A stretch of 64,000 nucleotides of DNA from assembly GCA_963575745.1 (NCBI GenBank), contig CAUYUJ010000118.1, positions 1 to 64,000 of the forward strand, read 5' to 3'. This document shows positions 8,778 through 64,000 of this stretch, one piece after another; position 1 is the stretch's first letter, and every line of letters begins with the position of its first letter. Source of the stretch: Prorocentrum cordatum. Its lineage: Eukaryota. Below the pieces are notes generated by a model. The model ran no database searches. It was given only the letters and a program-made list of their open reading frames with translations, and was not told where the DNA came from. The position numbers and the translations under genes were made by a program.

Positions 8778-8810
<33 letters not shown>

Positions 8811-9082: not shown

Positions 9083-9129
<47 letters not shown>

Positions 9130-29166: not shown

Positions 29167-29266
29167 GGTCGTCGTCGTCGCCGTCGTCGTCGTCCGTCGT
29201 CGTCAGCCGTCGTCCGTCGTCCGTCGTCCGTCGTCGTCGATCGTCGTCATCGTCGTCGTCGGCCAC

Positions 29267-29312
<46 letters not shown>

Positions 29313-30796: not shown

Positions 30797-30838
<42 letters not shown>

Positions 30839-30868
30839 GCCGTCGTCGTCGTCGTCGTCGTCGTCGTC

Positions 30869-30899
<31 letters not shown>

Positions 30900-31355
30900 C
30901 GTCGTCGTCGTCCGTCGACATCGTCGTTGTCCGTCGTCGTCGTCTGTCGTCGGCGTCGCCGTCGCCGTCCATCGTCGTCGTCATCGTCGTCGGCCGTCGT
31001 CGTCCGTCGTCCGTCGTCCGACGCCAGTCGTCGCCGTCGTCGTCGTCGTCCGTCGTCCGTCGCCCGTCGTCGCCGTCCGTCGTCCGTCGTCGTCCCCAGT
31101 CGTCGTCGTCGTCGTCGTCGTCGTCGTAGTCGTTGTCGTCGTCGTCGTGTACAGTCGTCGTCGTCATCGTCGTCGCCCGTCGTCGTCGTCGTCGTCGTCA
31201 TCGCCGTCGTCGTCGTCGTCATCGTCATCGTCGTCCGCCGTTGTTCGTCGTCGTCGTCGTCCGTCGTCGTCTTCCGTTTTCCTTCGTCGTCACCGTCGTC
31301 GTCCGTCGTCGTCGTCGTCGTCGTCGTCGGCCGTCGTCGTCGCCGTCGTCGTCGT

Positions 31356-31387
<32 letters not shown>

Positions 31388-31515
31388 CGTCGTCGCCGTG
31401 GTCGTCGTCGTCCGTCGTCCGACGTCCGTCGTTCGTCATCGTTGTCGTCGTCGTCGTCGTCGACGTCCAGGTCGTCGTCATCGTCCTCGTCGCCTGTCGT
31501 CCGTCGTCCAACGTC

Positions 31516-31546
<31 letters not shown>

Positions 31547-34500: not shown

Positions 34501-35776
34501 GGCGTCGGCGTCGTCCGTCGTCGTCGTCGTCGTCATCGTCGTGCACCGTCGTCGGCGTCGACATCGTCATCGTCGTCCGTCGTCGTCGTTGTCGTGCGTC
34601 GTCGTCGACGTCGTTGTCCATTGTCCTCCGTCGTCGTCGTCATCGTCGTCCATCGTCGTCGTCGTCGTCGTCCGCCGTCGTCGTTGTCGTCCGTCGTCGG
34701 CATCGGCGTCGGCGTCGTCCGTCGTCGTCGTCGTCGTCATCGTCGTCCACCGTCGTCGGCGTCGTCGTCGTCGTCGTCGTCCGTCGTCGTCGTCGTCGTG
34801 CGTCGTCGTCGTCGACGTCCATTGTCCTCCGTCGTCGTCGTCATCGTCGTCCATCGTCGTCGTCGTCGTCGTCGTCGGCCGTCGTCGTCGTTGTCGTCCG
34901 TCGTCGGCGTCGGCGTCGGCGTCATCCGTCGTCGTCGTCGTCATCACCGTCGTCCACCGTCGTCGGCGTCGACGTCGTCATCGTCGTCCGTCGTCGTCGT
35001 TGTCGTGCGTCGTCGTCGTGGTCGTCGTAGACCATGGTCCTCCGTCGTCGTCGTCATCGTCGTCCATCGTCGTCGTCGTCGTCGTCGTCGTCCGTCGTCG
35101 TCCTTGTCGTCCGTCGCCGGCGTCGGCGTCGGCGTCGTCCGTCGTCGTCGTCGTCGTCATCGTCGTCCACCGTCGTCGGCGTCGACGTCGTCATCGTCGT
35201 CCGTCGTCGTCGTTGTCGTGCGTCGTCGTCGTCCGTCGTCGTCGTCGTCGTCGTCCGTCGTCGTCGTCGTCGTCCGTCGTCGGCGTCGGCGTCGGCGTCG
35301 GCCGTCGTAATCGTCATCGTCGTCGTCGTCCGTCGTCGTCGTCGTCGTCGTCCGTCGTCGGCGTCGGCGTCGGCGTCATCCGTCGTCGTCGTCGTCATCG
35401 TCGTCCACCGTCGTCGGCGTCGACGTCGTCATCGTCGTCCGTCGTTGTCGTGCGCCGTCGTCGTGGTCGTCGTCGTCGTCCGTCGTCGTCGTCCGTCGTC
35501 GATATCGTCGTCATCGTCGTCCACCGTCGTCGTCGTCGTCGTCGTCATCGTCACCGTCGTCCGTCGTCGTCGTCGCGTCGTCGTCGTCGTCCGTCGTCGT
35601 CATCCACCGTCGTCGTCGTCATCGTCGTCGTCGTCGTCCGTCGTCGTCGTCCGCCGTCGTCGTCGTCGTCGTCGTCGTCGTCCGTCGTCGTCGTCCGCCG
35701 TCGTCGTCGTCCGTCGTCGTCGTCGTCCGTCGTCGTCGTCCGTCGTCGTCGTCATCGTCGTCCGTCGTCCGTCGTC
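29167..35776. repeat. 6.6-kb degenerate (GTC)n satellite with ~208-bp higher-order repeat
   Basis: Directly visible; marker CCATTGTCCTCC recurs mostly every ~205-210 bp from 32157 to 35032. Confidence 0.95.
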
Positions 35777-38058: not shown

Positions 38059-39330
38059 CCCACCCATCCTGTGGTGTTGAGTCCTCGTTTTAAAAAAACA
38101 TTACCCCGTGTTCCTTCCTCCCTTCCTTCCCCAACTCATCCTCCTCTCCTCCTCCTCTCCCTCCTCCTCTCCCTCCTCCTCCTCCTCCTCCTCCTCCTCC
38201 TCCTCCTTCCTCCTCCTCTTCCTCCTCCTCCTCCTCCTCCTCCTCTTCCTCCTCCTCCTCCTCCTCCTCCTCCTCCTCCTCCTCCTCCCCATCCTTCGTC
38301 CTCCCATCCTCCCGCTGCCCTTCCCCTCCTCCCACCCCTGCCTCTGCCCTCCGCAAGTCCTCATCATCATCATCATCATCATCATCAGCAGCAGCATCAT
38401 CAGCATCATCAGCATCATCATCAGCAACATCATCAGCATCATCAGCATCATCATCATCACTGACGCCATCATCGTTATCATCACCGCCATCTTCCACATC
38501 ATCACCACCGCAATCATCGGCATCGTGCCTCTGCTCTCCGCATGTGCACCATGTCGGCACACCCTTCACGCGTTTCGTGGCCACATAGGGAGCTCCACCA
38601 AAGGCCCCAGTGGCTGCGTTCACATGCGTCCCGCGCCCATTTCGGCACACACCCCACATGGTTCATGACCCCATACGGAGCTCCACCGAAGGCCCCAGTG
38701 GATCCGTTCACATGCGTCCCGCGCCCATTTCAGGACACCCCTCACACGGTTCGTGGCCCCATCGGGAACTCCACCGAAGGCCTCAGTGGCAACATTCACA
38801 TGCGTCCCATTTCGGAACACCCCTCACACTGTTCGTGGATAGAGAGCTCTACCGAAGGCCGCGGGTCACTTCGGCACACCCCTCACACGGTTCGTGGCCC
38901 CATAGGGAGCTCCACCGAAGGCCCCAGTGGGCCCCAGTGGCTGCGCTCACATGCGTCCCGCGCCCATTTCGGCACACACCTCACACAGTTCGTGGCCCAA
39001 CACGGAGCTCCACCGAAGGCCCCAGCGGCAGGGTCCGCATGGCGTACCCGCGCCCGATTCGGCAAACCCCTCACACGTCTCGTGGCCCAACACGGAGCTC
39101 CACTGAAGGCCCCAGCGGCAGAGCCTGCATGGCGCACCTGCACCCGATTCGGCACACCCCTCACACGGTTCGTGGCACCAAAGGGAGCTCCACCGAAGGC
39201 CCCAGCGGCAGGGCCCACATGGCGTACCCGCACCCGATTCGGCACACCCCTCGTTCCTCCCTTCCTGCTTCTTCTCACTTGCCTCGCGGTACCCGCAGTT
39301 TCATGTGGTTGGGCCCTTCGCCAGGATGAT
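38059..39330. mobile_element. Second copy of the 90-bp-array element
   Basis: Left end CCCACCCAT..GTGGTGTTGrGTCCTCGTTTT and right end TTGGGyCCTTCGCCAGGAT match 19135-20670; (CCT)/(CAT) tract, then array. Confidence 0.75.
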
Positions 39331-44695: not shown

Positions 44696-45828
44696 CTGGG
44701 AGCCGGCGGTATGCCGTCAATCTTGGTTACCGCCGGGAACTCGTAGAGTTTCCTTGCCACATACATGAACGGGATGCGGGCGCGGCAATCTCGCATCCCG
44801 CGCGCGCGGGGGTGCGGTTTCATGGGGAGGACGTGGGGGAGAAGAAGGAGTGAGGAGGAGAAGGAGGTGGAGGAGGCTGAGGAAGAGAAGGAGAAGGAGG
44901 AGAAAGCAGAAGGAGAAGGAGGGGGAGGAGGAAGAGAAGGATGACGAGCAGGAAAGGGATGGGTGGAGGGGAAAAAGGGGGGCGATGATGATGAGGAGGA
45001 GAAAAAGAAGGCCGAGGAGGAGAAGGAGGAATTCTATTCAGAAAAGCACATCATTTCTGGCAAAATATTCACAGTGCGAAAAGTTTTACAGTCGTAGCGA
45101 TGGTTGCGATCCGACTTCAGACGCCTCGATACCGTAGGCGAATGCACCTGGTTACCTTCAGTTTCGACAAGTGTTTTTTTTTATATTATTTTTTATTTTT
45201 TTTTCAGGCCCCTACCTACCGATCGTATGAAGTACGAAAGAACTATCATTATCCCTGAAAAATTAGCAAAGTACAAATAGCTGTTTCGTTGCAGCTCATG
45301 TAGCAGACCGAGTTCAGGCACCTAGATACTTGAACTAGCGCGCCTCTGGATTTTCTTTCAAGTGCTCTGCCGAACAGCACAGCCCTGTAGCTCATCTGCA
45401 GTTCTTTAAGAAAATATGCATCCCTAGCTCTGGTAGCAGACCGAGATACTTCAGACTAGCGCGCCTGATGATTCTAGATAGATTAGGTGTGCCTGTCAGC
45501 TCTGTAGCTCTTCTACAGCTCGGGTTAAGTTCAGAAAACCGACAGCACCTGCCAACAAAACACTCAACAACCGCTCCCGCCTGAGAGCTTTTTGACAGTA
45601 ATATGTACCCGACCGACATGATATCAAGATGGCGAGCAGAAATAAGATCGAATATGGGGGGGCAAACAATTAGAGCTCTAACGAATTGTCCAATTTCGAA
45701 AACATAATTTTCAGCCGACCAAAATTATGCCAAATTTCCGTTGAGATTTTTCGGGCCAACTAGCACCCCAGCGCGCCGGAATTACTCTTTAGCTTCGCCG
45801 CTTCGCTCTCAGGGAAGCTCTACAAGTC
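44696..45828 (-). mobile_element. Diverged stem-loop unit (Helitron/Helentron-like non-autonomous element)
   Basis: CTGGGAGCCGGCGGTA...TACCGCCGG hairpin, then ACTCGTAGAGTTTCC; inverted GGAAGCTCTACAAGT near 45813; partial 177-bp repeats inside. Confidence 0.55.
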
Positions 45829-46134
45829 AAATTGGACAGCACTGACTGCATAGCAAATATTACATAGCAAGGATTGCATCTACATAGCCTGTGAATCAGG
45901 ATTCCCGTAGTCAGCTCAGCCTTGGCACCTGAGGAGCTACCTTAAGTCTACGCACCTAAGCCAGCCCAGCCCACATAGCCGGTGCACCCCAGCCCACAAA
46001 GCCTGCGCATCAGCATTTCCCTAAATCCTACGTACCTAAGCCAACCCAACCCACATAGCCTGTGGCTCAGGACTGGGAGCCGGCGGTAAACCGTCAACCA
46101 GGTGTTTTGCGGTTTGCGGTCCGACCACAGGGCC

Positions 46135-46730
46135 CTACAAGGGCGGTCGGGTTGGTGCAGCCATCCCCTGTGGGCTGGATGTACCCTGAAAAACGTGATA
46201 CTCTTGAAGTATCTTGCAAGCAGAGCGGGCAATTCTCGAAGCGGCCTCAAGCTCACACTGAGTAACCGTCGCATCGGGAAGCAGGCCAAAAGCCTCCTCC
46301 GCCAACGGACGGGTAAACGTGTGCAGGCAATCACTAACCCCTTCCGCAGATTGCTCACTGATGAACTCACCGTCTAGCCACCATCCTCCCCCAGCACCTG
46401 CACTGCTAACGCCACCGTCGTACGCACCACGGATTGCGATCAATGTTTCAGTATTGTTTATATGTTGTTGAATGCTTCTGCACCTCGATTGTAATGGTAG
46501 ATGTCTGATTTCCCAAGTCAGTCGGTCGGCGCGGTCATTGCCTCCACGATAGTGATGACGCCACATGTCATACCCTGTGGCTGGGCCCTGCAGCTTAAAA
46601 TTTCGACAGGCGTCGTCTAACAGATCAATAACCTCCCCCACCTGCGATCGGTATATATTGTTGTTGCAATTTCACCTTCCCCTCATCCAGTTGGTTATCA
46701 GCATGGAGTCGCCCAACAGCTCCATCGCAA
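46135..46730 (-). pseudogene. RNase H domain, permuted motif order
   Basis: MELLGDS (GDS at 46713-05) ... HHYRGGNDRAD ... RGAYDGG..GAGGGW ... TVTQCELEAA; one in-frame TGA. Confidence 0.85.
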
Positions 46731-46866
46731 CTCCCACCTCGTCGCTCGAAGCGGACCTCATTTTCAAAGTTTGCTGCGAGGCGCCTGACAATACGATCAA
46801 GCGCCGCCTGTGTATACTGATTGTCCTCCTCCTCCTCCTCCTCTGTGTATCTGACCTCCCTCCTCC

Positions 46867-49800
46867 TTAAAGATAAAGCCCTCCGTCATATGTGAAATGC
46901 CCGCCGCCACACAGTCGGGCCGTAGCAAACTCGCGAAGACCACGTTCACTCCAGTCGAGATGGTGCCACCAGTTCACACCAGCAGCCTGCACAAATAGGA
47001 AGTCCCACGGCCTGTAGCCTGTAGGTAACCTCCTCCCTGTTAGTCTGGTTATCTCCGTCCTCCTCCCACTTGCAGTAATCATAGCCTCCCTCCTCTCCGT
47101 CCACTCCCCCAATCCATGCGGCATCGCAACACGTGAAACAACAAAGGGCCTTGACACGTCATCCGACACAGGCGGTGCTGGTGTCGGAGCCTCCCCAGGC
47201 CGGGTGGTCGAGAGCCTCTGTCGTTGGCCCCGCACCGTCTCACGGAAGATTCTCGCACGCTGACGCCGATTGGTATGTGCCTCCTCCCCCGACGCACGCG
47301 CTAACATAGGTGCACACGTATGCATACAGGCGAACGATGCCACATCCTTTGCCCAGTCAAACTGCTTTCTGAAAAATCTGTGGACCAATGATTGGAGGCC
47401 GCACCTAGCAAAGTGTTGGCGACCATAGCGCAGCCGCCTCTGAGTATACACAGTCCAATCCTCACTCGCCTTCTTACGAAGACCACCAATGATCGCCAGC
47501 AGTTGACCCTCCCACGCATATAACTTCTGAATAGTTCCCTCATCCGCCGTCATACCTTCACATGTATACAAAACAACGCACTGCAACCGTGCAATGTAAC
47601 GCATAAAACGATCACGCATAGGTAACTGTCTACAGCGATAGAACTGTACATCACACATCCACGCACGCCTGGCACGCTGTAAATGACAAAGTAGATCCCG
47701 ATGCTCACTCCAGTCATCAAAGAGTTCCACTCCCAGAGCCGACATCTGTCGAAGACGTGGCAGGACCAACTCCTCACCATACTCAGGGACCGACACACGA
47801 AGCTCGGTATCAGAACAGCGAGGCCAGCCTCCACACAAGAGGTATCCAAGCGATGAGGGTTTCCACCGCAGGCCCGCCTGAGCCAACGGCACCGTCAGCA
47901 TAGACATCATCTCCCGAAGTTCGTCCAGGGACCGTGCACATACATACAAGTTGTCCGCCCACAGAGCATGCGCAATCCTCCTCCTACCTCCTCTCAAGGA
48001 GGTCTCCAATTCATAACCATAGTCGTTCTCCTCCCACTGCCGTACCACCTTCTCCCAAAGATACACCGAGACAGCCTTGAACAAGAATGGGCTCTCCACT
48101 CCTCCCGTGCGGATACTCCTATCCCAAGACACCCAATCCGTCCACCGCACACCTTCAAAGGACATCTGACACACGGTCTCATGCATAGGCTCCAAGAGGG
48201 CAAATATGAGCTCCGAGGGGAACCCCAATGAAACCGGACTGTTATACGCCAACGTCAACGTCACATGGTCGAAGCACTGTAGTACGTCTGCACTCCCAAG
48301 ATATAATGATTCCCCTTTGCCCCAGAGACACGCGTGCTGTGAGAGCCTCTTTAGTACCGCCGTGATTTCACGTGGTTTCCTACCTGCTGCAAAGCCGAAC
48401 AAGCACGTATGAGGTCGGAGCTTTGTCAAATCTTCCTCCGCAGCTGTACCATTTGGACATAAGAGGTATGAGGCATATTGTTCTAGTGTCGTTGAGTTGG
48501 GTCATTTGGGGGCTCTTCGGGATCAGAGTGGCAAGGAATTTTCTCCAGCACTGCGGCGTGAGATTCTCCCGACAGGCCAGGCGCTGAAAGAAGTCACGCA
48601 CACGGCGCACACACGCCCAAGGAAGCAACTTGAGCATTTCGGGCGACACGTCATCGCATGACGCTGCTCCTCCCCTCTTGAGTCGTGCACGAGCTCGCAA
48701 CACAAGGGACATGCGAATGTCTAGCGTCCGATGCGAGGCCGCTGCTGCACACCTCGCCGTCTCCAACGTCTGTACACTAGCCCTGCGAGCCTCCTCGCAT
48801 TGGATAGTGGCACAAGCAAACCGTCCGATCTCCACCTCCCACTCCTCCAAGTCCTCAGATCTATGGACTGGCCGCCGACACAATCGCCGTATTGATGAAT
48901 TCGCCTTCACAAGTGGGTGCTCCCACCGCCTGAACGCACTGTGTCGTCACATCCTCCACTTCCTCCCACTCCTCCATGTCCTCCATCATAGTCTCCGTAC
49001 TGTCCGTGCTGTTACCCTCCTCCTCCACCACGGTCCTAAGCTGACGCGCCACACGAGGATGGGAACGGCTGACCAGCTCCCAGCCCTCCTCGGGCGTCGC
49101 GGCAGCAGACCTGACAGGAATTGTCCCGCATGTGGTGAAAGCAATCTCCGCCTCCCGAGCGTAAGCCTGAGGATCCTCTGGAGCCCAGTGGACCAAATTG
49201 GAGGCCCTCGTCGCCTTCGGCTTCTGCCTGCGTACACCCGTCGGAGCACATGGTAACGCGGCATGTAACAGAGCATGATCCGATACCGCAGTCAGCGCCG
49301 TCGCCCCCAGTGGTTGGATGAATTTAACCCCCACCTCCGACTGTGCACCGGGTAACCAATATAGTCCAAGACACTGGGAGCCCCAAGACCGGACAGGATC
49401 CAAGTAGGCCTCCTGGGTCCAAATGTGTTGGCCATCACAATGCTCCACCTCCCACAGAACTGAAGAAGCGCCTCCTTCATTGCCTCCCTCCTCCTCCAAC
49501 GAACACGTGAAGCCCCACCCGAGTAGACCCGAGTTGATTCCAGCAATCCCTCCCCCGTAAGTTGTAGACCGTTACAGCTCGTATCTGGCGACAGCTCCAC
49601 GTTGGCATCCGTGAGCAACACCACCTTCTTGGGCCTCCTAGGGTACCTGTGGAAATACTTCTCGAGGCCCTCATTCATATTATATATAATGTTCTGAAAC
49701 TTCTCATTCGTAATACCCTCAGCATTGGGCAAATAGCATGAAACAACCGTGACCGTCGTAAATCCTATGGCAACGTAACCTTTCCCTTTGAACGTAGCAA

Positions 49801-50038
49801 GGCGGTGCTTCCGCCAATTATCCTTATACAGGATGGCAACCTTGCGGGAGCTGTCAAAAATCGTGCGAATAGCACCTTCACCCGAACCTGACAGCTCAGA
49901 ACGATGATCCCAAAGATTTTGACACTCTTGTACCCCCAGGAGTGTCACATCCGCCCCTTTCATCGCACTAAGTATTGTGTGGATAGTAAGTTGTCCTCTC
50001 CGTCGTAGGTTCCACGAGCCTAGACGGACCTCTCGTCG
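46867..50038 (-). pseudogene. ORF2 APE + RT, frameshifted
   Basis: APE: GSWNL, GVQEC, YLP, TDAN, LDYI, SDH; RT: AASCDD, TRTICL, FGF, DVLQCFD, RTGGVESP, WADN, ALG. Confidence 0.9.
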
Positions 50039-51095
50039 TCACGGCGCTGATAGTCGCGCCTTGAGGCCTGCAATGTCCAAATTCGGCTCATATGATTTAA
50101 TCTCGTCCCGAATCGTCCATCCCTCCTGCGCATGCGGCCCTGGCTGAAATATCATGACAATCTGACCTGCATTCTGCGCCTCACTGGATGCACGCGCCCA
50201 CACATATGTTTGTCCCAGACCACTGCCCAGCACTGAGCGCATGATGGTTCCGTTCCTGCACACCTGAGCCCATACAGCATGACACTGGCCTGAAGCTTGA
50301 CCATGTACAATCTCCCATGGGGCGACCTCCACAGACACCCGAATATTGGCCGCCTCGGGCCACGGGAGTCTATTGATATCATCACTCGCAAGGGCTAGAT
50401 TAGATAACAGTGACCGTCTAAGTGCCCACAACTTCTGTCCTGGAGTACCTTTCTTGAAATAGATTCTCAAACGCCCATATCCGAAGTACTCCCTACCCGA
50501 GTTTGCGTTCGTCGTCGCCTCCTCGTCGATACAATTGCACCACTCTCCAGACTGAATGATGCGTTGTTTCATTGAGTTGAGCCGGGTCGTCAGGACATCC
50601 TGGGCCATCATCTGACGGGATCTCAACCCATGGTTGTTCCAATTAGTAACCCACCCCTTGCACTCAACAAAACTTGGCTCCCACTAAAAGTTGAAACGCC
50701 CTGGAGCTATGCCTGACCCCTAGTTTGAAGCCGCTGGCGCTCTAGTGGACGTCTCTGATGCCGTCCCGTCGCTGCCAACAATATATATATATATAAAGGA
50801 AAAAAACAAGAAAGGTCTCCAGATCAGCTTGCCTACGCGAGAGAGCCTGCATATCATGATTGAAAGATTTTCGGACGGCATCCACCTTACTGTCAACCGC
50901 TGTAATTGCCGTTTTGACCGTCTCGATTTTCCCGTCAACTGCTGTGAGAACGGCCGCCGTCACACTCTGCGTTTGTTGTGCCATCATTCTCTGAAGCTCA
51001 CTCAACAGATTTGCTGATCCCGGCTGCTCCTCCTCCCTCATCCGTTTACGTTCAGTCTCAGTCTCTGCCATCGCCACATCACTCGACCCCGCCAT
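50039..51095 (-). pseudogene. ORF1 (coiled coil + RRM-like), disrupted by a T/(TA)n run near 50780-50810
   Basis: Heptad segment VDGKIETVKTAITAVDSKVDAV; position upstream of APE. Confidence 0.65.
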
Positions 51096-51204: not shown

Positions 51205-51640
51205 AACAGGCAATGAAACGCGTACTCTGACAATCAATAAATACGAACTCCAAACAGTCAATGAAAGTGTACTCCGACAGTCAGTGGATGAGTACTCCCA
51301 CCGTCAATGAAGTGTACTCCGACAATCAATGAGTCTGTACTCCCACAATCAATGAATGCGTACTCCGACAATCAATGAAGCGTGTACTGCAACAGTCAAT
51401 GAAGTGTGTACTCCAACAAACAATGAAAGAATACAAAGTGCAGCCTCTCAACGAAGACGTACCCCGACAGTCAGTGAATGTGTACTCCGACCACAATGAA
51501 TGCAAACTCCGACAATCAATGATGTGTACTTCGACAATCAATGAACGTGCACACCGTCAATCAATGAAGCGTGTACTCTGACAATCAATGAAGTGTGTGC
51601 TCTGACAATCAATGAATCTGCTCGCCGACAATCAATGAGC
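51205..51640. repeat. ~23-bp tandem monomers in the LINE 5' UTR
   Basis: GTGTACTCCGACAATCAATGAA-like unit repeated well over a dozen times. Confidence 0.9.
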
Positions 51641-51769
51641 ACGTACGATACACAGGCCGTGTACGGTAATGAGAACCAAACAAAGCAGCACGGCACAATG
51701 CCGCTCGAGACGAGAGCCCCAAACGGGAGCCCCCAGCCGCCAGACCCCCGAGGAGGGAGGCAACCAGGT

Positions 51770-51888
51770 TTTTTGCGGTTTGCGGTCCGACCAGGAGGCC
51801 CTACAAGGACGGTCGGGTTGGTGCAGCCACACCCTGTGGGTTGGATGTACCCTGAAAAACGTGATACTCATTGAGTATCTTGCAAGCA
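51770..51888 (-). mobile_element. Short 3' fragment of the same LINE family in tandem
   Basis: Closely matches 46104-46222 and follows the duplicated CAACCAGGT. Confidence 0.85.
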
Positions 51889-52290: not shown

Positions 52291-53755
52291 CTGGGCGCCG
52301 GCGGTAAACCGTCAACCTTTCTTACCGCCGGGGGACTCGTAGAGCTTCCTGACCATATATTATGTCCAAAGAATTAGCAGAGAACGAAGAGTTTTTCAGC
52401 CCGAGCGCTGATAGCAGACTGATCTCAGGCGTCTAGTGATATCCCATTGCTGTGCTGAACAGTTCTATAGCTCATCTGCAGCGTGTAGAAATACCATTAG
52501 GGAGAAAATAGCAGAGTACAAATCCGTGTTTGGCGTCTGCGCTCACAGACCAAAACCAAGCGTCTAGATGCTTCGCGCCTCATGATGTCCTTCTGATTTT
52601 TCGGCCGAAGAGCTCTCGAGCTGCTCTGCAGCTCGAGTTCAGTGAAGAAATTCACCATCATTTGGGAAAAAATGTCCGTCGAATACGAATAGTTTTGTGA
52701 ATCTAGCTCGGGTAGCAGACCGAGTTCAGACCGCTCGATGCAACAGACGAACACGCCCAATGCTTCTGCATCAGTTTCTGTGCGTACCAGCTCTGTAGCT
52801 CTCCTACAGCCCGAATTCAATACAGAAAATAGACAACATCTGTCAAGATGACTCCAAGAATACGAATAGTTTTGCGGACCTAGCCCGAGTAGCAGACCCA
52901 GTTCAGACCTCTGGATGCAACAGACGAACGGGCCAGATGATTCCGAATCAGTTTCTGTGCGCATCAGCTCTGTAGCTCTCCTAAAGCCCGAGTTACGTGC
53001 GAAAACGGACAGCACCCCTCAAGATGACTCGAACGATACGAATAGCTTCGCGGACCTAGCTCGAGTAGCAGACCGAGTTCAGACCTCTGGATGCAACAGA
53101 CGAACGCGCCTGATCATTCTGCATCGGTTTCTGTGCGCATCAACTCTGTAGCTCTCCTAGAGCTCGAGTTAAGTACAGAAAACCGACAGTCCCTGTCGAG
53201 ATGACCCGAGCGATACGAATAGTTTTGCGGACCTAGCTCGGGTGGCAGACCGATTTCAGACCTCTGCATGCGACGGCGGACGCGCCTGATGTCTCCGAAT
53301 CGGTTTCTGCAATTACCAGCCCTGTAGCCCCCCTACAGCCCGAGTTAAGTACAGAAAACCAACAGCACCTCTCAAGATGACTCGAACAATACGAATAGTT
53401 TCGCGGACCTAGCTCGGGCAGCAGACCGAGCTCAGACCTCTGGTTGCAACAGACGAACGCGCCTGATGATTCTGAATCGGTTTCTGTAAGTATCAGCTCT
53501 GTAGCTCTCCTACAGCTCGAGTTAAGTACAAAAAACCGACAACGCATGTCAAGATGACCCCAAACGGCCGATCCCGCCCGTGTGCTTTTTGGCAGTAATA
53601 TCTACCCGATCGGGCTGAGATTAAGACGGCGAGCGGGAATAATATCGAATATCACGGGAAAAATACTAGAGCTCAAACGAATGGTTGAATTTCGAGAACA
53701 AAATTTTCAACCGACCAAAAGTCAGCAAAAGGTCCGTCGAGATTTTTCTTGCCAG
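52291..53755 (-). mobile_element. Stem-loop unit with ~177-bp internal tandem repeats
   Basis: Hairpin 52298-52331; CAGACCTCTG marker at 52904, 53080, 53257, 53433; homologous to units at 55954, 57305, 60738. Confidence 0.75.
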
Positions 53756-53783
53756 CTGGGCGCCGGCGGTAAACCGTCAACCT

Positions 53784-55953
53784 CTCTTTTTTTTTGCGGT
53801 TTGCGGTCCGCCACTAGAATCCGAATCCGAATCGGCGGAGCAGTGCAACTGAGCCCCCACCATCTTAGGCCGCAGCAGAGCGCACGCCACCTTAGCAGCA
53901 GCTCTCGTCAGGGCAGCGCAGGCAGCTAGTTCACAGCAGGTTACCGTGCTACCAGGAGGCAAGCTCATCGCCTCCTCGGCCACATCGTGCCAATGGAAGC
54001 TGTGCGAGCTGGTGCAGGAGGAAGAGGAGGAGGAGGAGGAGGAGGAGATGGGAAAATCAACCTGCACGCTGGAACCCCTACCTACAACGCCAATCTGAAG
54101 CCACCACCCACCTCCACATCCTTCATTACTGACACCCCCATCGAATGCACCACGGAGAGCAGTCTTACGAGTACTGAGGAACTTATCATATGCAAACCAG
54201 CGAGTAATAGTTTGGCCACCTCTGGCCTCCCACGACAATTATCCGCACGCTCATTACCCTCACGAAAGAAATGCTTATACAGATTCTGTCCCGATGCAGG
54301 TGAGGTCAGTCCCCATCCAGACAGCATCGATACCGTATTTTGTAGTGTTCCCACCAGTCGTACATACTGCTTGTTGCGAATCTGCCACTCACCACACATC
54401 CAGTTTACAACAGTCTTACTATCTCCCAAGATCTCCATCACAAGACGCTCAATATTCTCACACCTCCACTCCGTTTCATTCTCATAATTAGCGGCAATAC
54501 GTTTGCTCATCCTCTCATTTATCTCTCTCTCCTCCTCCTCCTCCGCCTTCACATGTCTCACACCAGGCGGCCTGGGTAGAACAAACAAGTCGAACAAATG
54601 TTGCATGCCAATCACAGTCAGCAAATGCTTGCAGTATTTCTCACGGGACCCAGCGGAACTGTCGAACGAGAGGTACCACTCGCAACCAAAGAAATCGCAC
54701 AAGCACCAGTCCCACACAGTATGTCCACGGGGAGGGCCGCCCATGTTCATGCGTGTGAGCTGCTTCCTATCTTTTACAGGCAATGCTAGAATACATATGT
54801 CACGATGTTCCGTCCACTTCCCCCTTCCATGTAACATGGCCAGCCTAGATATCATCCATTCCCGTGACATGTCCGACTCCTCAGGTATGGCAGGCTGATC
54901 ATCTGGTGTCCGCCGGCGACAGCCACTCGACATCTGGGATATCTGAGATACATGATATGATTGAGAAGACGCCGCCGCCGCCATCGCCCGAGTTTTCCCC
55001 TGACGCCGATTTGGTACCGTCTCCCCCTCCTCCTCCTCTGTGTGTGTTGTGTATCTCCTCATACGAATACTTGCAGCAACTGAGACATCCTTAGCCCAAT
55101 CCCAACAACGAAATATCCATATCTGCACCGCACTTCGGAATCCAAGCCCAGCAAAACTCTGCCGTCCCGCTTTGTATCGCCTACGTTGAAACTCAGACCA
55201 GCCTTCAGTTCTCCGCTTGCGTATACCTGACATTATAGCTAGACATCTGCCTTCAAAATAGTGAACAGCAGCAATGGTAGAATAGTCGGGCGTTCTGCCC
55301 TCACAGTTGAATAATAATGCAGCAATCACTTTAGCTTGATAGCGAGTAAATCTTTCAGCCAAGTCAATCCCAGAGCAGCGGTAATACGCGATTTCCCCAA
55401 AGAACATCCTCTGGGCTTTCTGGAGCATGGCCTCTGAGTCCGAGTGGTCCTTCCAGGTCTCCTCCAGAGTGGCTCCCAGGATCTCAAACGCTTGAACACG
55501 CGGTAGGACCACTTCTCGGGTCCCAAGAGCGGCGTCACTAGACGGCACCAGCACACGGATATCCTGCTCAGGGGACGGCGGGATGCCAGGCGGCGCACCA
55601 AAGTAAATATACATCAAAGATTTCGGCTTCCAGGTCATTCCTGCACTCATCAGCGGGATACTCATGTCACGCACCATCAACTCAAGGTCAGTGCGGGTCC
55701 TCGCATACAACAAAAGATTATCTGCCCAGAAACTGTGGGTCATACGCTCACCGTTGAACATGCGCTCATCATTTTCCAATTTGATACCGTACTGCGTTTC
55801 TTGCCTCCATCTGTCGATGACATCTCTCCAGAGTACAATAGAAACTGCCAGAAAAATCATTGGTCCCTCTACTCCTCCCGTTCGAATAGATTTGTCCCAA
55901 TAGACCGCTGACGATGCCTCGATTCCCTCGAAGCTGGCCACGCACTGATTATT
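53784..55953 (-). mobile_element. 5'-truncated RT-RNase H LINE inserted in the hairpin loop
   Basis: RTGGVEGP, FWADN, EILGDS, FREGNERAD, then frameshift to RGAFDGG...TVTCCELAA; the two hairpin halves flank it with ACCT on both sides. Confidence 0.92.
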
Positions 55954-58900
55954 ACCTTTCTTACCGCCGGGGGACTGGTAGAGCTTCCTGACCATATATG
56001 ATGCCCAAAGAATTAGCAGAGAACGAAGAGTTTTCCAGCCCGAGCGCTGATAGCAGACTGATCTCAGGCGTCTAGTGATATCCCATTGCTGTGCTGAACA
56101 GTTCTATAGCTCATCTGCAGCGTGTTTGGCGTCTGCGCTCACAACAGACCCAAACCAAGCGTCTAGATGCGTCGCGCCTCATGATGTCCTTCTGATTTTT
56201 CGGCCGAAGCTCTCTCGAGCTGCTCTGCAGCTCGAGTTCAGCGAAGAAATTCACCATCATTTGGAAAAAAATTGTCGGTCGAATACGAACAGTTTTGTGA
56301 ACCTAGCTCGGGTAGCAGACCGAGTTCAGACCGCTCGATGCAACAGACGAACGCTCGCAATGCTTCTGCATCCGTTTCTGTGCGCACCAGCTCTGTAGCT
56401 CTCCTACAGCCCGAATTCAATTCAGAAAATGGACAACATCTGTCAAGATGACTCGAAGAATACGAATAGTTTTGCGAACCTAGCCCGAGTAGCAGACCCA
56501 GCTCAGACCTCTGGATGCAACAGACGAACGGGCCTGATGATTCCGAATCAGTTTCTGTGCGTATGAGCTCTGTAGCTCTCCTACAGCCCGAGTTACGTGC
56601 GAAAACGGACAGCACCTCTCAAGATGACTCGAATGATACGAATAGCTTCGCGGACCTAGCTCGAGTAGCAGGCCGAGTTCAGACCTCTGGATGCGACAGA
56701 CAAACGCGCCTGATTATTATGCATCGGTTGCTGTAAGCATCAGCTCTGTAGCTCCCCTAGAGCTCGAGTTAAGTACAGAAAACCGACAGTCCCTGTCGAG
56801 ATGACCCGAGCGATACGAATAGTTTTGCGGACCTAGCTCGGGTAGCAGACCGAATCAGACCTCTGCATGCGACAGGCGGACGCGCCTGATGTCTCCGAAT
56901 CGGTTTCTGCAATTACCAGCCCTGTAGCCCCCTACAGCCCAAGTTAAGTACAGAAAACCGACAGCACCTCTCAAGATGACTCTAACAATACGAATAGCTT
57001 CGCGGACCTAGCTCGGGCAGTAGACCGAGTTCAGACCTCTGGATGCAACAGACGAACGCGCCTGATGATTCTGAATCGGTTTCTGTAAGTATCAGCTCTT
57101 GTAGCTCTCCTACAGCTCGAGTTAATTACAAAAAACGACAACGCATGTCAAGATGACCCCAAACGGCCGATCCCGCCCGTGTGCTTTTTGGCAGTAATAT
57201 CTACCCGATCGAGCTGAGATTAAGACGGCGAGCGGGAATAAGATCGAATATCACGGGAAAAAATACTAGAGCTCAAACGAATGGTTGAATTTCGAAAACA
57301 AAATTGGGCGCCGGCGGTAAACGGGGGGACTCGTAGAGCTTCCTGACCATATATTATGTGCGAAGAATTAGCAGAGAACCAATAGTTTTTCAGCCCGAGC
57401 GCTGATAGCCGACTGATCTCAGGCGTCTAGATACAATTCGCTATTGCCCCTGGTAGTTCCCTTCGCATTGCTGTGCTGAACAGTTCTACAGCTCATCTGC
57501 AGCGTGTAGAACCAAGAAAAACAGTACCATTAGGGAGAAAGTAATAGAGTACGAATCGTGTTTGGCGTCTGCCCTCACAACAGACCCAAACCAAGCGTCT
57601 AGTGGCTTCGCGCCTCATGATCTCCTTCTAATTTTTCGGCCCAAAAGCTCTCGAGCTGCTCTGCAGCTCGAGCTCAGTGAAGAAATTCACCACCATTTGG
57701 AAAAAATATCGGTCGAATACGCACAGCTTCGCGAACCTAGCTCGGGTAGCAGACCGAGTTCAGACCTCTCGGTGCAACAGACGAACGCACCTGATGCTTC
57801 TGGATCGGTTTCTGTGCGCATCAGCTCTGTAGCTCTCCTACAGCCCGAGTTCAATACAGAAAATGGACAACACCTCTCAAGATGACCGGAAGAATACGAA
57901 TAGTTTCGCGAACCGAGTTCAGACCTCTGGATGCAACAGACGATACCGGCCTGATGATTCCAAATCAGATTCTGTGCGCATCAGCTCTGTAGCTCTCCTA
58001 AAGCCCGAGTTACGTGCAAAAACCGACAGCACCTCTCAAGATGACTCGAACGATACGACTAGTTTCGCAGACCTAGCTCGAGTAGCAGACCGAGTTCAGA
58101 CCTCTGGATGCGACAGACGAACGCGCCTGATTATTCTGCATCGGTTTCTGTGGGTACCAGCTCTGTAGCTCCACTCGAGCTCGAGTTAAGTACAGAAAAC
58201 CGACAGTCCCTGTCACGATGACTCGAGCGATACGAATATTTCCGCGAACCTGCTCGAGTAGCAGACTGAGTTCAGACCTCTGCATGCAAAAGGCGGACGC
58301 GCCTGATGTATCTGAATCAGTCTGTAATTACCAGCCCTGTAGCCACCCAACAGCCCGAACTAAGTACAGAAAACCCACAGCACCTCTCAAGATGACTCGA
58401 ACGACACGAATAGTTTCGCGGACCTAGCTCAAGCAGCGGACCGAGTTCAGATCTCTGGATGCAACATACGAACGCGCCTGATGATTCTGAATCGAGTACG
58501 TGTGCGTACCAGCTCTGTAGCTCCCCTAGAGCTCGAGTTAAGTACAGAAAACCGACGACGCGCGTGTCAAGATGACCCCGAACGGCCGATCCCGCCCGTG
58601 TGCTTTTTGGCAGCAATATCTACCCGATCGACCTGAGATTAAGACGGCGAGCGGGAATAAGATCGAATATCACAGGAAAAAATACTAAGGAGCTCTAACG
58701 AATTGATGAATTTCAATAACAAAATTTTCAACCAACCAAAAGTCAGCAAAAGGTCCGTCGAGATGTTTCTTGCCAACTAGCTCTCCAGCGCCCCGGAATT
58801 ACTCTTAAGCTTCCAGCAACTAGATAAGGGAAGCTCTACGAGTTATTTTCAACCGACCAGAAGTCATCAAAAGGTCCGTCGAGATTTTTCTTGCCAACTA

Positions 58901-59100
58901 GCTCTCCAGCGCCCCGGAATTACTCTTAAGCTTCCAGCAATTAGCTAGGGGAAGCTCTACGAGTTACTAGCTCTCCAGCGCCCCGGAATTACTCTTAAGC
59001 TTCCAGCAACTAGCTACGGGAAGCTCTACGAGTTACTAGCTGCGCCCCGCGCCGGAATTCCTCTAGCTCATCGACGCCGAAGAGCTCTACGAGGTACTAC
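55954..59100 (-). mobile_element. Two further tandem stem-loop units (junction near 57305, hairpin partly deleted there)
   Basis: Collinear with 52291-53755; right end carries repeated GAAGCTCTACGAGTT, the inverted copy of the left-end ACTCGTAGAGCTTC. Confidence 0.75.
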
Positions 59101-59208: not shown

Positions 59209-59712
59209 TTTTTGAGTTTGAGTCAGGGCGCGGACAGCTGTGACAGCTGAGCCCTAAGACTCCCAAGCGGAGCACAGGGTAGCTAGAGAAGGCACCTCTT
59301 ATCATCACACTGCCGAGCCACTGAGGCATAGGCATCGGAATAGGATGCAGGAACAAGGAAAAGGATGCAGCACAACATGTGAGAATGCAAAGGTGTTGGA
59401 ACAGGTTAGAGAATGGTGTAAGAGCTGGTTGAAACGCTACCCAAAACGTGTTCCACGGCCATATAAAGCCGTTTTACTGCATTGATCAAAGCAACAGCCG
59501 ATCAGCAGCATATCCTTCCACAGACCGCCCTCCAACGAAGAAACCGTGGAGGCCGACTAGTTCATGTTTACGTTGTATATCACAGGCGAAGCAGAGTAAA
59601 AAGTAAAGTTGAAGTCTTGAACTCGTAGACCTCTTTTCTTGCCAAGCGCTCCTCGGAAGTGAAGGAAGCTTAAGCCAGAGCCAAACAACTCTAAAAAATC
59701 GGCCCCATACAA
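59209..59712 (-). mobile_element. Unrelated ~500-bp insert at the same hairpin-loop site, probably a LINE 3' fragment
   Basis: Follows CCGGCGGTAAACCGTCAACCAGGT; minus-strand tail CTCAAACTCAAAAA; only faint RNase H-like remnant; right boundary approximate. Confidence 0.55.
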
Positions 59713-62218
59713 ATATTTTTGCGGACCTAGCTCGAGTAGCAGACACTGTTCAGAGCTCTAGATGCTTCAGCCGAACGCCCTTGATCATTCTGGATCCGCT
59801 TCTGTGCGCATCAGCTCTGTAGCTGTGCTACAGCTCGAGTTAAGTGCAGAATACCGACAGCGCCTCTAAAGAGACCTTCAGAAATACGAATAGTGTTGTG
59901 GACCTAGCTCGAGTAGCAGAACGAGTTCAGGCCTCTCGATGCAACAGACGACGGCGCCCGGTAATACTGAATCGGTTTATGTGCGCACCAGCTCTGTAGC
60001 TACTCTAAATCTTGAGTTGAGTACAGAAAACCGACATCACTGGTCAAACTGGCTCAAAGAATACAACAAGTTTTACGGACCTAGCTCGAGTAGCAGACCG
60101 AGCTCAGACCTCTCGATGCAGCAGAAGAACGCGCCTGATGATTCTGAATCAGTTTCTGTGGGTATCAGCTCTGTAGCTCTCCGAAATCTCGAGTTAAGTA
60201 CAGAAAATCGTGAACGCGTGTCAAGATGACTCGGAACACAGTCGGTTCCTCCAAGTGTGTTGATAGTAATACTGCACCTACGGACCTGAGAATTTGACTG
60301 GCAGACGCGGCATAATCCACTACAGGTGCGAAAAATCTGCTTCTCTAAATGAATTGTCAACTTGGTAGCGTCCGAAACCCTGAGAGCAAAGACAACTGGG
60401 AGCCGGCGGTAAACCGTCAACCAGGTTACCGCCGGGAGCCTCGTAGAGCTCTTTTCTCGCACGGCGCTGCTTGGAACACGTGGGGGGGAGCTCTCTCATA
60501 CGCGAGCTAAAAACTCGAAAAAATATGTTTTTAAAAATAACCCCCAAGGACGGTTCCGCCAAGTGTTTTGATAGTTGTACTGTAGCTGCGGACCTGAGAA
60601 TTTCACTGGTAGACGCGGCACAACCCACTACAAGTGCGAAAAAAGACCAGTTCTCAAAACGAATGTTCAAATCTCTCACAAAGTTCGTCCAACCAACCCA
60701 AAGTTCGCACATTGTCCGTCGGGGCCGGGTCGGCTAACTGGGCGCCGGCGGTAAACCGTCAACCTTTCTTAGCGCCGGGGGACTCGTAGAGCTTCCTGAC
60801 CATATATTATGTCCAAAGAATTTGAAGAGAACGAATAGTTTTTCAGCCCGAGCGCTGATAGCTGACTGATCTCAGGCGTCTAAGGATATCCCATTGCTGT
60901 GCTGAACAGTTCTATAGCTCATCTGCAGCGTGTAGGAAAAAATCAAGGAGAAAATACCAGAGTACAAATCCGTGTTTGGCGTCTGCGCTCACAACAGACC
61001 CAAACCAAGCGTCTAGATGCTTCGCGCCTCACGATGTCCTTCTGAATTTTCGGCCGAAGAGCTCTCGAGCTGCTCTGCAGCTCGAGATCAGTAAAGAAAT
61101 TCACCATCATTTGGAAAAAATGGTCGGTCAAATACGAATAGTTTTGTGAACCTAGCTCGGGTAGCAGACCGAGTTCAGACCTCTCGATGCAACAGACGAA
61201 CGCTGCCAATGCTTCTGCATCACTTTCTGTGCGCACCAGCTCTGTAGCTCTCCTACAGCCCGAATTCAATACAGAAAATGGACAACATCTGTCAAGATGA
61301 CTCGGAAAATACGAACAGTTTTGCGGACCTAGCCCGAGTAGCAGACCCAATTCAGACCTCTAGATGCAACAGACGAGCGGGCCTGATGATTCTGAATCAG
61401 TTTCTGTGCGCATCAGCTCTGTAGCTGTGCTACAGCCCGAGTTACGTGCCAAAACGAACAGCACCTCTCAAGATGACTCGAACGAGACGAATAGTTTCGC
61501 TCACCTAGCTCGAGTAGCAGACCGAGTTCAGACCTCTTGATGCAATAGACGGACGCGCCTGATTATTCTGCATCGGTTTCTGTGCGCATCAGCTCTGTAG
61601 CTCCCCTAGAGCTCGAGTTAAGTACAGAAAACCAACAGTCCCTGTCGATGACCGAGCGATACGAATAGTTTTGGGGACCTAGCTCGAGTAGCAAACCGAT
61701 TTCAGACCTCTGCATGCGACAGGCGGACGCGCCTGATGTCTCGGAATCGGTTCCTGCAATTACCAGCCCTGTAGCCTCCCTACAGCCCGAGTTAAGTCCA
61801 CAGAAAACCGACAGCACCTCTCAGATGACTCGAGCAATACGAATAGTTTCGCGGATCTAGCTCGGGCAGCAGACGGAGTTCAGACCTCTAGATGCAACAG
61901 ACGAACGCGCCTGATGATTTTCTGTAAGTATCAGCTCTGTAGCTCTCCTACAGCTCGAGTTAAGTACAAAAAACCGACAACGCCTGTCAAGATGACTCGA
62001 AACGGCCAAATCCCGCCGCAACGCTTTGTGGCAGTAAAAGGTACCCGATCGGGCTGAGATCAAGACGGCGAGCGGGAATAAGATCGAATATGGTGGGAAA
62101 AAATACTACAGGTCCAACGAATGGTTCAATTTCGAAAACAAAATTTTCAACCGACCAAAAGTCACCAAAAGGTCCATCGAGATTTTTCTTGCCAACTAGC
62201 TCTCCACCGCCCCGGAAC
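59713..62218 (-). mobile_element. Partial and complete stem-loop units with empty hairpins at 60403-35 and 60745-78
   Basis: Same 177-bp repeats and termini. Confidence 0.75.
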
Positions 62219-62244
62219 TGGCGCCGGCGGTGAACCGTCAACCT

Positions 62245-64000
62245 GGTCTGCGGTCTGCGGGGCCCGATTCGAGCCCCCTTAGGGGGCAGGGCCAGCGGTA
62301 GGATTACCTACAGGCAACCTAAGCACTAACAGCGGAGCTGTGCGATATACAAGTCAGCGTAGCTGTGCATATATGATACAACAGCGTAGCTGCACAGGAA
62401 TATACACACATCAAGAAACAGTGGGGCTACGCATGTATCTTACAACAGCGGAGCTATGCAGATATTATACACAAACAGTCACCTGCCAAGTTGTACGTGT
62501 ATACACATCTCGGCAATGCCATTGAGAAGAGAATGTGCAGCTGCCAACTCAGCCTGTGTGATCGTGCAATGGCTAGGGATCATGAAACCTCTGCGGCCAA
62601 CTCCAGGGTGCCATCCACCCTGCACAAGTCCAGGGGGAAGCTGGTGAGGAGGAAGAGAGGGAACAAGATAAACATCAATAACCCAGCCACACGAGGTGCC
62701 ACGCTCACACCGCCCACCGTCAAAAGCTCCTCTAAGTGCACGAACAATATAATGACCCGATCTAATATGATAAAGAGTGTTATGATTCCAACGAACATCA
62801 GAAGTTACTTTACCCTCACGTGCAAGATGTGTCTCATAGTCCGCCTCATCGTTGCCCTCCCTATACACCCATTTCCACATATCCCTTCCCACTTCAGCCG
62901 TGACAAGATGATGGTCCTCACTCATTCTGTGGAGGCGGTTCTGCATACCCTTGATCGTGCGGCGGTATACTTCATTATGACAGCGATATCTTCCATTAAG
63001 CCAGCGCACAACACACTGGCTATCCCCACGGAGCTCCAAGCCATATCAACCCCCTTCCCCACGCCAAGTGGTTTCATCATCATTTATCGCGGCCAGTCGT
63101 TTCGCCACCCGTTCATTTTCCCGTCGTTGCTGCTCCTCAGACTTCTCCTCCCCCTTCTCCTCCTGCTTGAACTCACCCGTGAAGGGATCCCGAAGAAGGC
63201 AGAACTCGAGAAGATCATCCAAGTCCAGGGCGGCCAGGGTACCCACCAGGAAAGAACGCCAGCCAGTTTCATGCCAGACCATCGTGCGATCCCAATGAAC
63301 CCCGCGCGTGTGCTCGAAGACCTCGAACCAAGGCCTGAGTCCCGTCAAGACTCGATGACGACAGGTTCTAGTAAACCTTCGGCCCCCAGGGAGAGCTCTA
63401 ACATGTACGTCGCGCTGCTCAGTCCACTCCCCCGACGCGTGCATCATCGTCAAGGCGCTCTGCATACTGGCAGTGGGCAATCCTCCTTCCTCCTCCCGTG
63501 CATAGGTACGGCGTACCCGCTTACGAACAGGCTCATGTACATGTTGTGAATCGTGATGCTCATATGCCGTGTTCTCCGATATACGTCTGCGAACTGATCT
63601 ACTTTCCAAGGAAGATGCGCTCTGTGCCTTTCTCCTACACGAACTGTTGAGCTGTCTGGCATTCGGGGTAGGCGAGGGAACCGATAACTCCAAGAAACGC
63701 TGCGAACCACCAAAAATATCAGGATCTCGTGGCTCATGATAAAGAATGCCCTGACTGAGTGCGTCCTCATCCACCCGACTATGTTCCTCATGGATTGTGC
63801 TCACAACATGTTTGGCGAAGAGCCACTGGCGATGAAGGGCGAGCTGGACCATCGAAGGCTTACGGGCCCACTTCAATAAGCGACGGCCACCCTTAATCCT
63901 CCTGCCCCAGTACTCTCCCCAGGACTCCGTGATCTTCTTTTTGAGACGTCTCATGGTGGACAAGAAGTTGCCTTCAGCTGCATGTATCTGTTGGAGACTA
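62245..64000 (-). mobile_element. 3' part of a third divergent LINE of the RNase H family, running out of the window
   Basis: Begins at the hairpin loop GAACCGTCAACCT; tail CCGCAGACCGCAGA; post-RT region 63046-63963 shares motifs with the other two copies (GEWTE.R, KRLAA...E..W). Confidence 0.88.
62479..63039 (-). CDS. RNase H domain, permuted motif order, uninterrupted
   Basis: ELRGDS ... WVYREGNDEAD ... RGAFDGG...SCGW ... TITQAELAAA. Confidence 0.88.
   Translation of the reverse strand: MELRGDSQCVVRWLNGRYRCHNEVYRRTIKGMQNRLHRMSEDHHLVTAEVGRDMWKWVYREGNDEADYETHLAREGKVTSDVRWNHNTLYHIRSGHYIVRALRGAFDGGRCERGTSCGWVIDVYLVPSLPPHQLPPGLVQGGWHPGVGRRGFMIPSHCTITQAELAAAHSLLNGIAEMCIHVQLGR

Follow-up and report, generated by a model that had tools for sequence, protein, structure and literature searches.

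The window analyzed here is a stretch of 64,000 nt from Prorocentrum cordatum (assembly GCA_963575745.1, contig CAUYUJ010000118.1, positions 1–64,000, forward strand), in which three elements resembling long interspersed nuclear elements (LINEs) are found between 44 and 64 kb. All three, referred to as copies A, B, and C, lie on the minus strand and are of the type that combines an apurinic-type endonuclease (APE) with a reverse transcriptase (RT). The last domain of their ORF2 (from open reading frame, ORF), a candidate circularly permuted type 1 RNase H, is the subject of this study. In each copy, this domain displays the same succession of motifs, namely GDS, (R)(E/G)GN..AD, RGA(F/Y)DGG, G.GW, and T(V/I)T..EL.A, and the frame ends soon afterward (22, 38, and 48 residues beyond the catalytic E in copies C, A, and B, respectively, as counted on the translations). 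When the whole window was scanned in six frames with hidden Markov models (HMMs) of half 1 (GDS to AD) and half 2 (DGG to AE), matches were obtained exactly at the three copies and nowhere else (E = 1.5e-24 to 4.7e-34 for half 1 and 2.2e-21 to 2.3e-25 for half 2), with half 1 located 5' of half 2 in all of them. Pairwise identity among the copies over the domain is 31–53%; the four catalytic acidic residues are kept in the translations of all three, and no DG strand was found upstream of GDS in any.

The three copies are dead pseudogenes, interrupted by stops or frameshifts (Table 1). Copy A combines an in-frame TGA, an in-frame TAA, and a frameshift; copy B has one frameshift, which splits the terminal domain; and copy C has a single in-frame TGA. 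At position 63048 (plus strand), the contigs of all four public sequencing runs compared contain C instead of A, which is read as a GGA codon, and so the stop of copy C appears to be private to that copy. The stretch is present at a high word share in DNA runs labelled as marine, freshwater, and estuary metagenomes, as well as several coded organisms; RNA runs are absent from the list. A spliced-leader motif of dinoflagellates had no match in the window with up to three mismatches, a result that does not exclude a dinoflagellate.

Table 1. Coordinates of the three LINE-like copies, their domains, and their motifs in the window.
Feature	Position	Strand	Match or remark
Copy A element	~46135–50700	minus	endonuclease-like frame, RT frame, and terminal domain
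Copy A APE-like endonuclease frame, 248 aa	49295–50038	minus	Pfam Exo_endo_phos at 18.1 bits, under its cut-off of 24.5 (E 0.0024)
Copy A RT frame, 544 aa	46870–48501	minus	Pfam RVT_1 at 26.3 bits, under its cut-off of 29.6 (E 7.2e-6); in-frame TAA 46867–46869 at end
Copy A terminal domain	46204–46728	minus	
Copy A half 1 (GDS..YRGGNDRAD)	46504–46728	minus	HMM E 1.5e-27; in-frame TGA 46672–46674 inside
Copy A half 2 (RGAYDGG..GW..CELEA)	46204–46440	minus	HMM E 2.2e-21; stop 46135–46137
Copy A motifs RRLAA; GDS; YRGGNDRAD	46772–46786; 46702–46716; 46525–46551		RRLAA in other frame
Copy A motifs RGAYDGG; GW; ..CELEA	46411–46431; 46375–46392; 46243–46272		
Copy B element	53780–56103	minus	RT-containing frame and split terminal domain
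Copy B RT-containing open frame, 673 aa	54085–56103	minus	half 1 at end
Copy B terminal domain	53885–54441	minus	
Copy B half 1 (GDS..FREGNERAD)	54238–54441	minus	HMM E 1.5e-24
Copy B half 2 (RGAFDGG..GW..CELAA)	53885–54160	minus	HMM E 6.2e-24; other frame; frameshift between 54241 and 54154
Copy B motifs KRIAA; GDS; FREGNERAD	54490–54504; 54415–54429; 54241–54267		
Copy B motifs RGAFDGG; GW; ..CELAA	54134–54154; 54098–54115; 53921–53950		
Copy C element	62482 to beyond 63999	minus	runs off the window end
Copy C ORF2 C-terminal part upstream of RNase H	63049–63999	minus	acidic run and conserved KRLAA helix; AlphaFold2 helix 45–64 (block pLDDT 94–96); intact relative P0204
Copy C in-frame TGA	63046–63048	minus	just upstream of GDS strand
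Copy C putative permuted RNase H domain, 188 aa	62482–63045	minus	complete, one open frame; whole-domain HMM E 2.3e-61; AlphaFold2 model
Copy C half 1 (β4..αE, GDS..NDEAD)	62809–63042	minus	
Copy C half 2 (β1–β3 and αA, DGG..AEL)	62503–62745	minus	stop 62479–62481
Copy C motifs KRLAA; GDS; YREGNDEAD	63088–63102; 63016–63030; 62839–62865		one frame
Copy C motifs RGAFDGG; GW; TITQAELAA	62713–62733; 62677–62694; 62539–62565		one frame

A database search with the 188-residue domain of copy C returned nine close relatives (58–72% identity) among 121 candidates. Two of the relatives bear the eukprot label "Pyramimonas sp." When 1.84 billion representatives were scanned exhaustively with HMMER, the same query matched 84 clusters at E ≤ 1e-3, of which 28 were at E ≤ 1e-10 and three at E ≤ 1e-30, and many of these matches covered query residues 2–181 in one stretch that ends about 10–25 residues before the end of the protein. 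Full-length ORF2 relatives with a C-terminal permuted domain include P0021 (1306 aa), P0039 (1455 aa), and P0084 (1299 aa); in the last of these, half 1 was matched in the scan and the other half follows. P0204 (858 aa) is an open frame that spans the RT and the permuted domain up to the C-terminus and, on reading of its alignment and sequence, is close to copy C across the domain and the preceding stretch. The Pfam profile RVT_1 matches P0021 (34.3 bits) and P0039 (32.3 bits) above its cut-off and P0084 (25.3 bits) below it; among these three proteins an endonuclease match was found in P0039 only, and it is weak (Exo_endo_phos, E = 0.05). With an apurinic-type endonuclease and an RT in ORF2, the elements would fit the APE-type LINEs. 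A search with the RT region of P0021 found only P0021 itself and P0204, and phmmer with P0021 against the PDB sequences gave nothing at E ≤ 0.01.

The order of the two halves was determined in an alignment of 92 rows (A2), 91 of them from the database, and in 202 fetched proteins. As the half HMMs were built from A2, those 91 match by construction, and it is the 111 proteins outside A2 that are independent of them. Forty-seven rows of A2 span the four catalytic columns; the order is GDS, AD, DGG, E in all 47, and the residues are D, D, D, E in 43. Conservation among the non-gap rows of each column is high (D in 62 of 65, N in 86 of 86, D in 84 of 87, D in 79 of 81, and E in 66 of 71), with rows going down to 19% identity to the window copy. 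The 47 rows that span all four columns have a linker of 30–50 residues between AD and DGG and a tail of 7–77 residues after the catalytic E. Both halves were detected at E ≤ 1e-3 in 108 of the 202 proteins, and half 1 comes first in every one of these, the canonical order being found in none. The other 94 proteins, with half 1 only (87, followed by at most 80 residues) or half 2 only (seven, preceded by at most 39 residues), are read as fragments. Neither half occurs a second time in the 92 aligned proteins, where the best extra match reached 5.9 bits, or, at E ≤ 1e-3, in the 202 proteins, where the double half-1 matches of P0129 and P0198 are adjacent pieces of one half. A search with the half-1 profile gave 129 proteins at E ≤ 10; all 120 matches listed score as members of the permuted family, and no canonical RNase H was found among them. 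The related elements that share the permuted domain form a large family, known from aquatic samples, and, judged from these counts, the permuted order is a trait of that family and not a product of decay.

A second large subfamily (IQILGDSNLIVNWMNG..YREWNQEAD..FFDGG..TVTQAEC) has members among the half-1 profile matches and comprises P0087 and P0094–P0136, on assembled contigs of 10–140 kb, and some of its members have a precomputed RVT_3 label. In the 15 members that were read, FFDGG comes after N..AD in those reaching that far.

The Pfam profile RVT_3 matches half 1 only, over approximately positions 54–120 of its 123. On copy C, this match (15.7 bits, E = 0.014) is below the 21.6-bit cut-off; matches were found in four of the 12 members of a shallow alignment (A1). 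Of 10 other relatives that were scanned, five were matched, and two of these, P0101 (28.8 bits) and P0102 (23.0 bits), exceed the cut-off. The A2 profile matched seven PDB sequences at E ≤ 10, of which six are RNase HI chains: 4e19_A (8.4e-7), 3u3g_D (2.7e-6), 3aly_A (2.9e-5), 2ehg_A (3.5e-5), 4h8k_A (5.2e-5), and 3hst_B (8.9e-4). Each of the four alignments shown consists of two stretches in reversed order; in 4e19_A, profile positions 137–202 fall on chain residues 69–127 (DG..AE) and positions 40–114 on residues 134–197 (GDS..AD).

This reversal was quantified by hhalign comparison with two canonical profiles, one made from 81 E. coli-type RNase HI sequences and the other from 29 bacterial RVT_3-type sequences. 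To obtain the latter, 201 genomes were searched, of which 44 matched, and the 30 loci returned were used except L085, because no open frame was extracted from it. The family was represented by those A2 rows, 58 of the 92, in which half 1 has 50 or more residues and half 2 has 45 or more. Against the RVT_3-type profile, the native sequence gave two matches in reversed order, Q4–86 on T63–136 (probability 96.9%, E = 1.6e-10) and Q106–167 on T7–58 (26.6%, E = 6.9e-4). With the halves swapped, a single match was obtained (Q7–164 on T1–134 of 142, 127 columns, 98.2%, E = 4.7e-14), with a score of 83.6 versus 64.2 for the native order, and the re-permuted family thus aligns end to end with the 29 bacterial sequences. 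Likewise, against the E. coli-type profile, the native order gave three pieces, the best at 38.7%, and the swapped order one match of 131 columns (86.6%, E = 4.4e-6). With both profiles, each of the four carboxylates of the re-permuted domain aligns with a canonical catalytic residue; with the E. coli-type profile, FDGG, AEL, GDS, and N..AD fall on D10, E48, D70, and D134 in E. coli numbering. In a rotation scan of 29 cut points, the score reached a plateau of about 79 (119 columns) for cuts from the αE–β1 linker into the start of β1/β2, versus 65 for the native order and 38–52 for cuts inside half 1. A comparison of A2 with the single E. coli RNase HI sequence recovered half 1 only, at 0.9% probability; a profile built from canonical sequences was required instead. 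At the level of sequence, each half is the homologue of its counterpart in canonical RNase H.

The structure of the domain was predicted by AlphaFold2 from A2, copy C being read through its TGA (263-residue numbering). The model is one confident unit, with a mean predicted local distance difference test score (pLDDT) of 91.8 and a predicted template modeling score (pTM) of 0.83, in the order β4-αB-αD-β5-αE-linker-β1-β2-β3-αA. In permuted order, it contains the expected helices together with five strands, three long and two short: a helix at 45–64 (KRLAA), strand 76–82 (β4), helices 85–91 and 100–120, strands 122–124 and 132–134, helix 137–151 (αE), a linker helix at 163–170, the long strands 174–188, 191–204, and 219–231, and helix 237–259. 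In this model, D83 follows β4, D144 is in αE, D184 is in β1, and E241 is at the start of the last helix, each on the element that carries it in the canonical enzyme.

By its four carboxylates and its profile similarity, the domain would belong with type 1 RNase H. However, the canonical chain order (DG, AE, DS, AD) is replaced by DS, AD, DG, AE in all three copies of the window and in every relative with both halves (108 of 108), which makes it a permuted variant of type 1 RNase H and not an ordinary member. The original prediction, made from the window sequence alone, had claimed this order for three elements, with no DG strand before GDS and no second GDS after the E helix. The motif coordinates and the six-frame scan place the order in all three, on the minus strand, and the two absences hold both in the copies and in the 202 relatives, none of which shows a DG/E half ahead of GDS or has its E helix followed by a GDS/AD half, the finding that it had named as contrary to its view. 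The re-permutation check that it had proposed came out as it expected, with a single full-length match of the swapped halves, and the predicted structure is one confident unit. The elements may, as it also inferred, define a distinct non-LTR lineage. Its argument that the retention of four acidic residues reflects selection stands in part: all four are indeed present in each copy, but the copies are broken, and it is the intact relatives that speak for selection. The order and its conservation, the homology of the two halves, the result of re-permutation, and a confident model with the right secondary-structure elements all support a natural circular permutant of type 1 RNase H, as predicted, and we consider this permutant to be real.

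In our interpretation, the last domain of ORF2 is very probably a circularly permuted type 1 RNase H of the archaeal-like, RVT_3 type, proposed to keep the usual sheet, the two-metal site, and a function in RNA removal. Its chain would start at β4 (GDS) and continue through αB, αD, β5, and αE (H.YREGN..AD); the 30–50 residue linker would join the old termini and lead to β1 (RG.FDGG), β2 (G.GW), β3, and helix αA (T.T.AEL.A), about 20–30 residues before the end of the protein. The two halves would pack into the usual five-stranded sheet, with D of β1, E of αA, D of β4, and D of αE forming the two-metal site. In target-primed reverse transcription, the proposed task of such a domain is to clear the RNA template out of the RNA:DNA hybrid once the first strand has been made, and its junction with the rest of ORF2 would be moved from the start of β1 to the start of β4. 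That the domain is an active RNase H degrading the RNA template seems most likely, as the four carboxylates and the N of N..AD are near-invariant at identities down to 19%.

Several observations weigh against this interpretation. All three window copies are broken, and their own state is no evidence of selection, which is supplied by the intact relatives in the database. Half 2 alone resembles the canonical β1–αA region weakly (9.3 bits for 4e19 and 1.3–1.4 bits for the other three PDB alignments), and its native hhalign match has the low probability of 26.6% (E = 6.9e-4). When AlphaFold2 was given the shallow alignment A1 (12 rows), the pLDDT was 77.6, β4 and β5 were not formed, and residues 1–18 were below 50. 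In sequential VIA-align comparisons, RNase HI structures match model residues 67–158 (half 1) only (3u3g_D, Z 4.1; 4e19_A, Z 3.9; 3aly_B, Z 3.7), and the top whole-model matches are unrelated α/β proteins (Z 5.0–5.8). Similarly, Foldseek matches RNase HI 3aly_A over half 1 only (probability 0.96, root mean square deviation 3.4 over 86 columns). Weak sequential structure matches are expected of a permutant and are no sign of a new fold. The top PDB matches of Foldseek, PelC and lipoproteins, have a root mean square deviation of about 13 Å and are regarded as meaningless.

Four other explanations were considered. The permuted fold might be that of a nucleic-acid-binding or structural module of the ORF2 protein, RNA removal being left to the host RNase H as in elements without the domain. 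The connection between RT and RNase H enters the fold at a new point, which could alter access of the hybrid to the site, and the structure searches match solved RNase H weakly. However, conservation of the carboxylates and of N (D, D, D, E in 43 of 47 rows, N in 86 of 86) at identities down to 19% is hard to explain without catalysis, and we regard a non-nuclease function as unlikely. Less likely still is complementation in trans, in which half 1 of one ORF2 protein would pair with half 2 of another in a domain-swapped dimer. The linker of 30–50 residues would be long enough for this, but its length is conserved, it has predicted structure inside (the helix at 163–170), and the AlphaFold2 monomer is confident as one unit. 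Prediction with the halves as separate chains (76–160 and 168–263) scored 0.01 versus a mark of 0.34, in a run without alignment and with the partner fold uncertain, and is evidence neither way.

How the permutant arose bears on another of these explanations. Circular permutants usually arise when a domain is duplicated in tandem and the outer halves are then lost, and we infer the same origin here: the permuted RNase H may have arisen in this way, although no trace of the route was found in the second-copy searches or in the test for an αA remnant. The KRLAA helix upstream of GDS was examined as a vestigial αA and rejected for lack of support: it has no similarity to αA (probability 0.05–0.09%), and when a global alignment forces it onto αA, the score falls from 60.4 to 48.0. 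An intermediate with two copies must once have existed on that route, and the domain could be imagined as the remnants of two tandem RNases H, the first without its N half and the second without its C half, both decaying and not forming one fold. This is very improbable and can be considered largely refuted, given the absence of a second half in the 92 aligned and 202 fetched proteins, the lack of likeness between the upstream helix and αA, the conservation of the four catalytic residues, and the model as one unit. As for chance motifs, or an artefact of assembly or frame in the window, this explanation is refuted by HMM E-values of 1e-21 to 1e-61 in three copies, by 84 independent clusters, and by contigs from four public runs of four studies, which span the stretch in the same order without joints, single contigs bridging the AD, DGG, and AE motifs. 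The permuted order is not an assembly artefact.

Among known enzymes, the best profile matches of the permuted RNase H are archaeal-type RNases HI without the basic protrusion (E = 8.4e-7 to 8.9e-4), namely Halobacterium salinarum RNase H1 (4e19/4nyn), Sulfolobus tokodaii RNase HI (2ehg/3aly), LC11-RNase H1 (3u3g), and the N-domain of Rv2228c (3hst). The two groups have in common DG, AE, GDS.lV, and (P)RE.N..AD, as well as the absence of the basic protrusion. In contrast, the solved archaeal-type enzymes are free-standing and have the order β1-β2-β3-αA-β4-αB-αD-β5-αE, whereas the permuted family forms the C-terminal domain of a LINE ORF2 and has β4 first, αA last, and a linker of 30–50 residues. 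An archaeal-like RNase H of plant L1 elements was reportedly described by Smyshlyaev et al. in PNAS in 2013. That domain and the permuted one are alike in their position C-terminal to the RT of an APE-type LINE, in a presumed role in template removal, and in archaeal-like affinity. The RNase H domains of plant L1 and other non-LTR elements (those without long terminal repeats) are not known to depart from the canonical motif order, which would set them apart from the 108 of 108 relatives with both halves, in which the order is permuted.

The original prediction knew of no description of such a domain. The same holds for retroelements after a full-text literature search, in which no account of a permuted RNase H in a retrotransposon turned up. 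However, the CIRPIN survey of AlphaFold DB cluster representatives (PNAS 2026, preprint November 2025; PMC13552848, Fig. 5D) shows one permuted pair of ribonuclease H-like domains, and the text names no protein, retrotransposon, catalytic motif, or family for it, so that the pair may or may not be of the LINE family. In the same text, the authors' own literature search for circularly permuted ribonucleases gives the RNase T2/BECR case only (PMC13552848). In a survey of the RNase H-like superfamily from 2014, the string "permut" is absent from the main text (PMC3985635). Three further articles were set aside: in PMC13524379, the string refers to statistical permutation tests, and PMC6338049 and PMC8262109 are irrelevant to permuted RNase H.

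Several repeats lie around the LINE copies. Satellite arrays with a 176–177 bp period (52681–53563, 56282–58576, 59707–60207, and 61131–62002; 19 copies of a 153-nt core, 65–100% identity) are located directly 3' of copies B and C, and copy B is flanked by them on both sides. The elements may lie inside a satellite array, or else the repeats may be part of their 3' ends. In addition, a segment of about 200–300 nt (families D7–D10) follows the stop codon of each copy (45546–45827, 53543–53757, and 61982–62263) and is found twice without a LINE (57142–57377 and 58561–59034). This segment may be a common 3' untranslated region, and its solo copies may be 5'-truncated insertions. The interval 51761–51888 is a 128-nt copy, 91% identical, of 46095–46222 (family D13), comprising the last 88 coding bases of copy A, the stop, and 40 downstream bases; it resembles a second insertion of an A-type element that was severely truncated at its 5' end. 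A 23-bp tandem repeat of about 18.5 copies (51206–51638, also read with periods of 45–189 bp) lies between copy A and the satellite region.

Elsewhere in the window, a 6.6-kb (GTC)n microsatellite (29168–35776, about 2100 units, 75% matches) accounts for the GC content of that interval, about 0.67, and for its AT skew, which ranges from -0.67 to -0.78. A 90-bp tandem repeat occurs at 19266–20169 (10.1 copies) and, 19 kb apart, at 38930–39252 (3.6 copies), and a 73-bp repeat of 9.5 copies is found near the window start (1732–2429). Long CAT, CTC, CCT, and TAGCT microsatellites are located at 8632–9480, 16025–16370, 21754–22101, and 17400–17940.

Studies of protein folding and of two-metal catalysis have long relied on RNase H as a model, and retroelements carry it as one of their standard modules. 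Conservation of a natural permutant over hundreds of divergent sequences would mean that this fold tolerates new termini between αA and β4 under selection, and the permutant offers a ready-made system in which folding and the coupling of RT to nuclease can be compared with the canonical order. It also illustrates why such domains stay unannotated: Pfam sees one half, usually below threshold, and sequential structure search misses RNase H as the top match for the whole domain. The order DS, AD, DG, AE provides a clean sequence marker for one LINE lineage in plankton genomes and metagenomes. On balance, we lean toward a wider picture in which these elements represent an old and widespread LINE lineage of aquatic eukaryotes, with a catalytically active, naturally permuted RNase H1 that arose by tandem duplication and trimming and that would be the first natural permutant of the canonical enzyme to be characterized. 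If this is true, the joint between RT and nuclease shifts from β1 to β4, which would change the geometry that couples the polymerase and the nuclease in this lineage.

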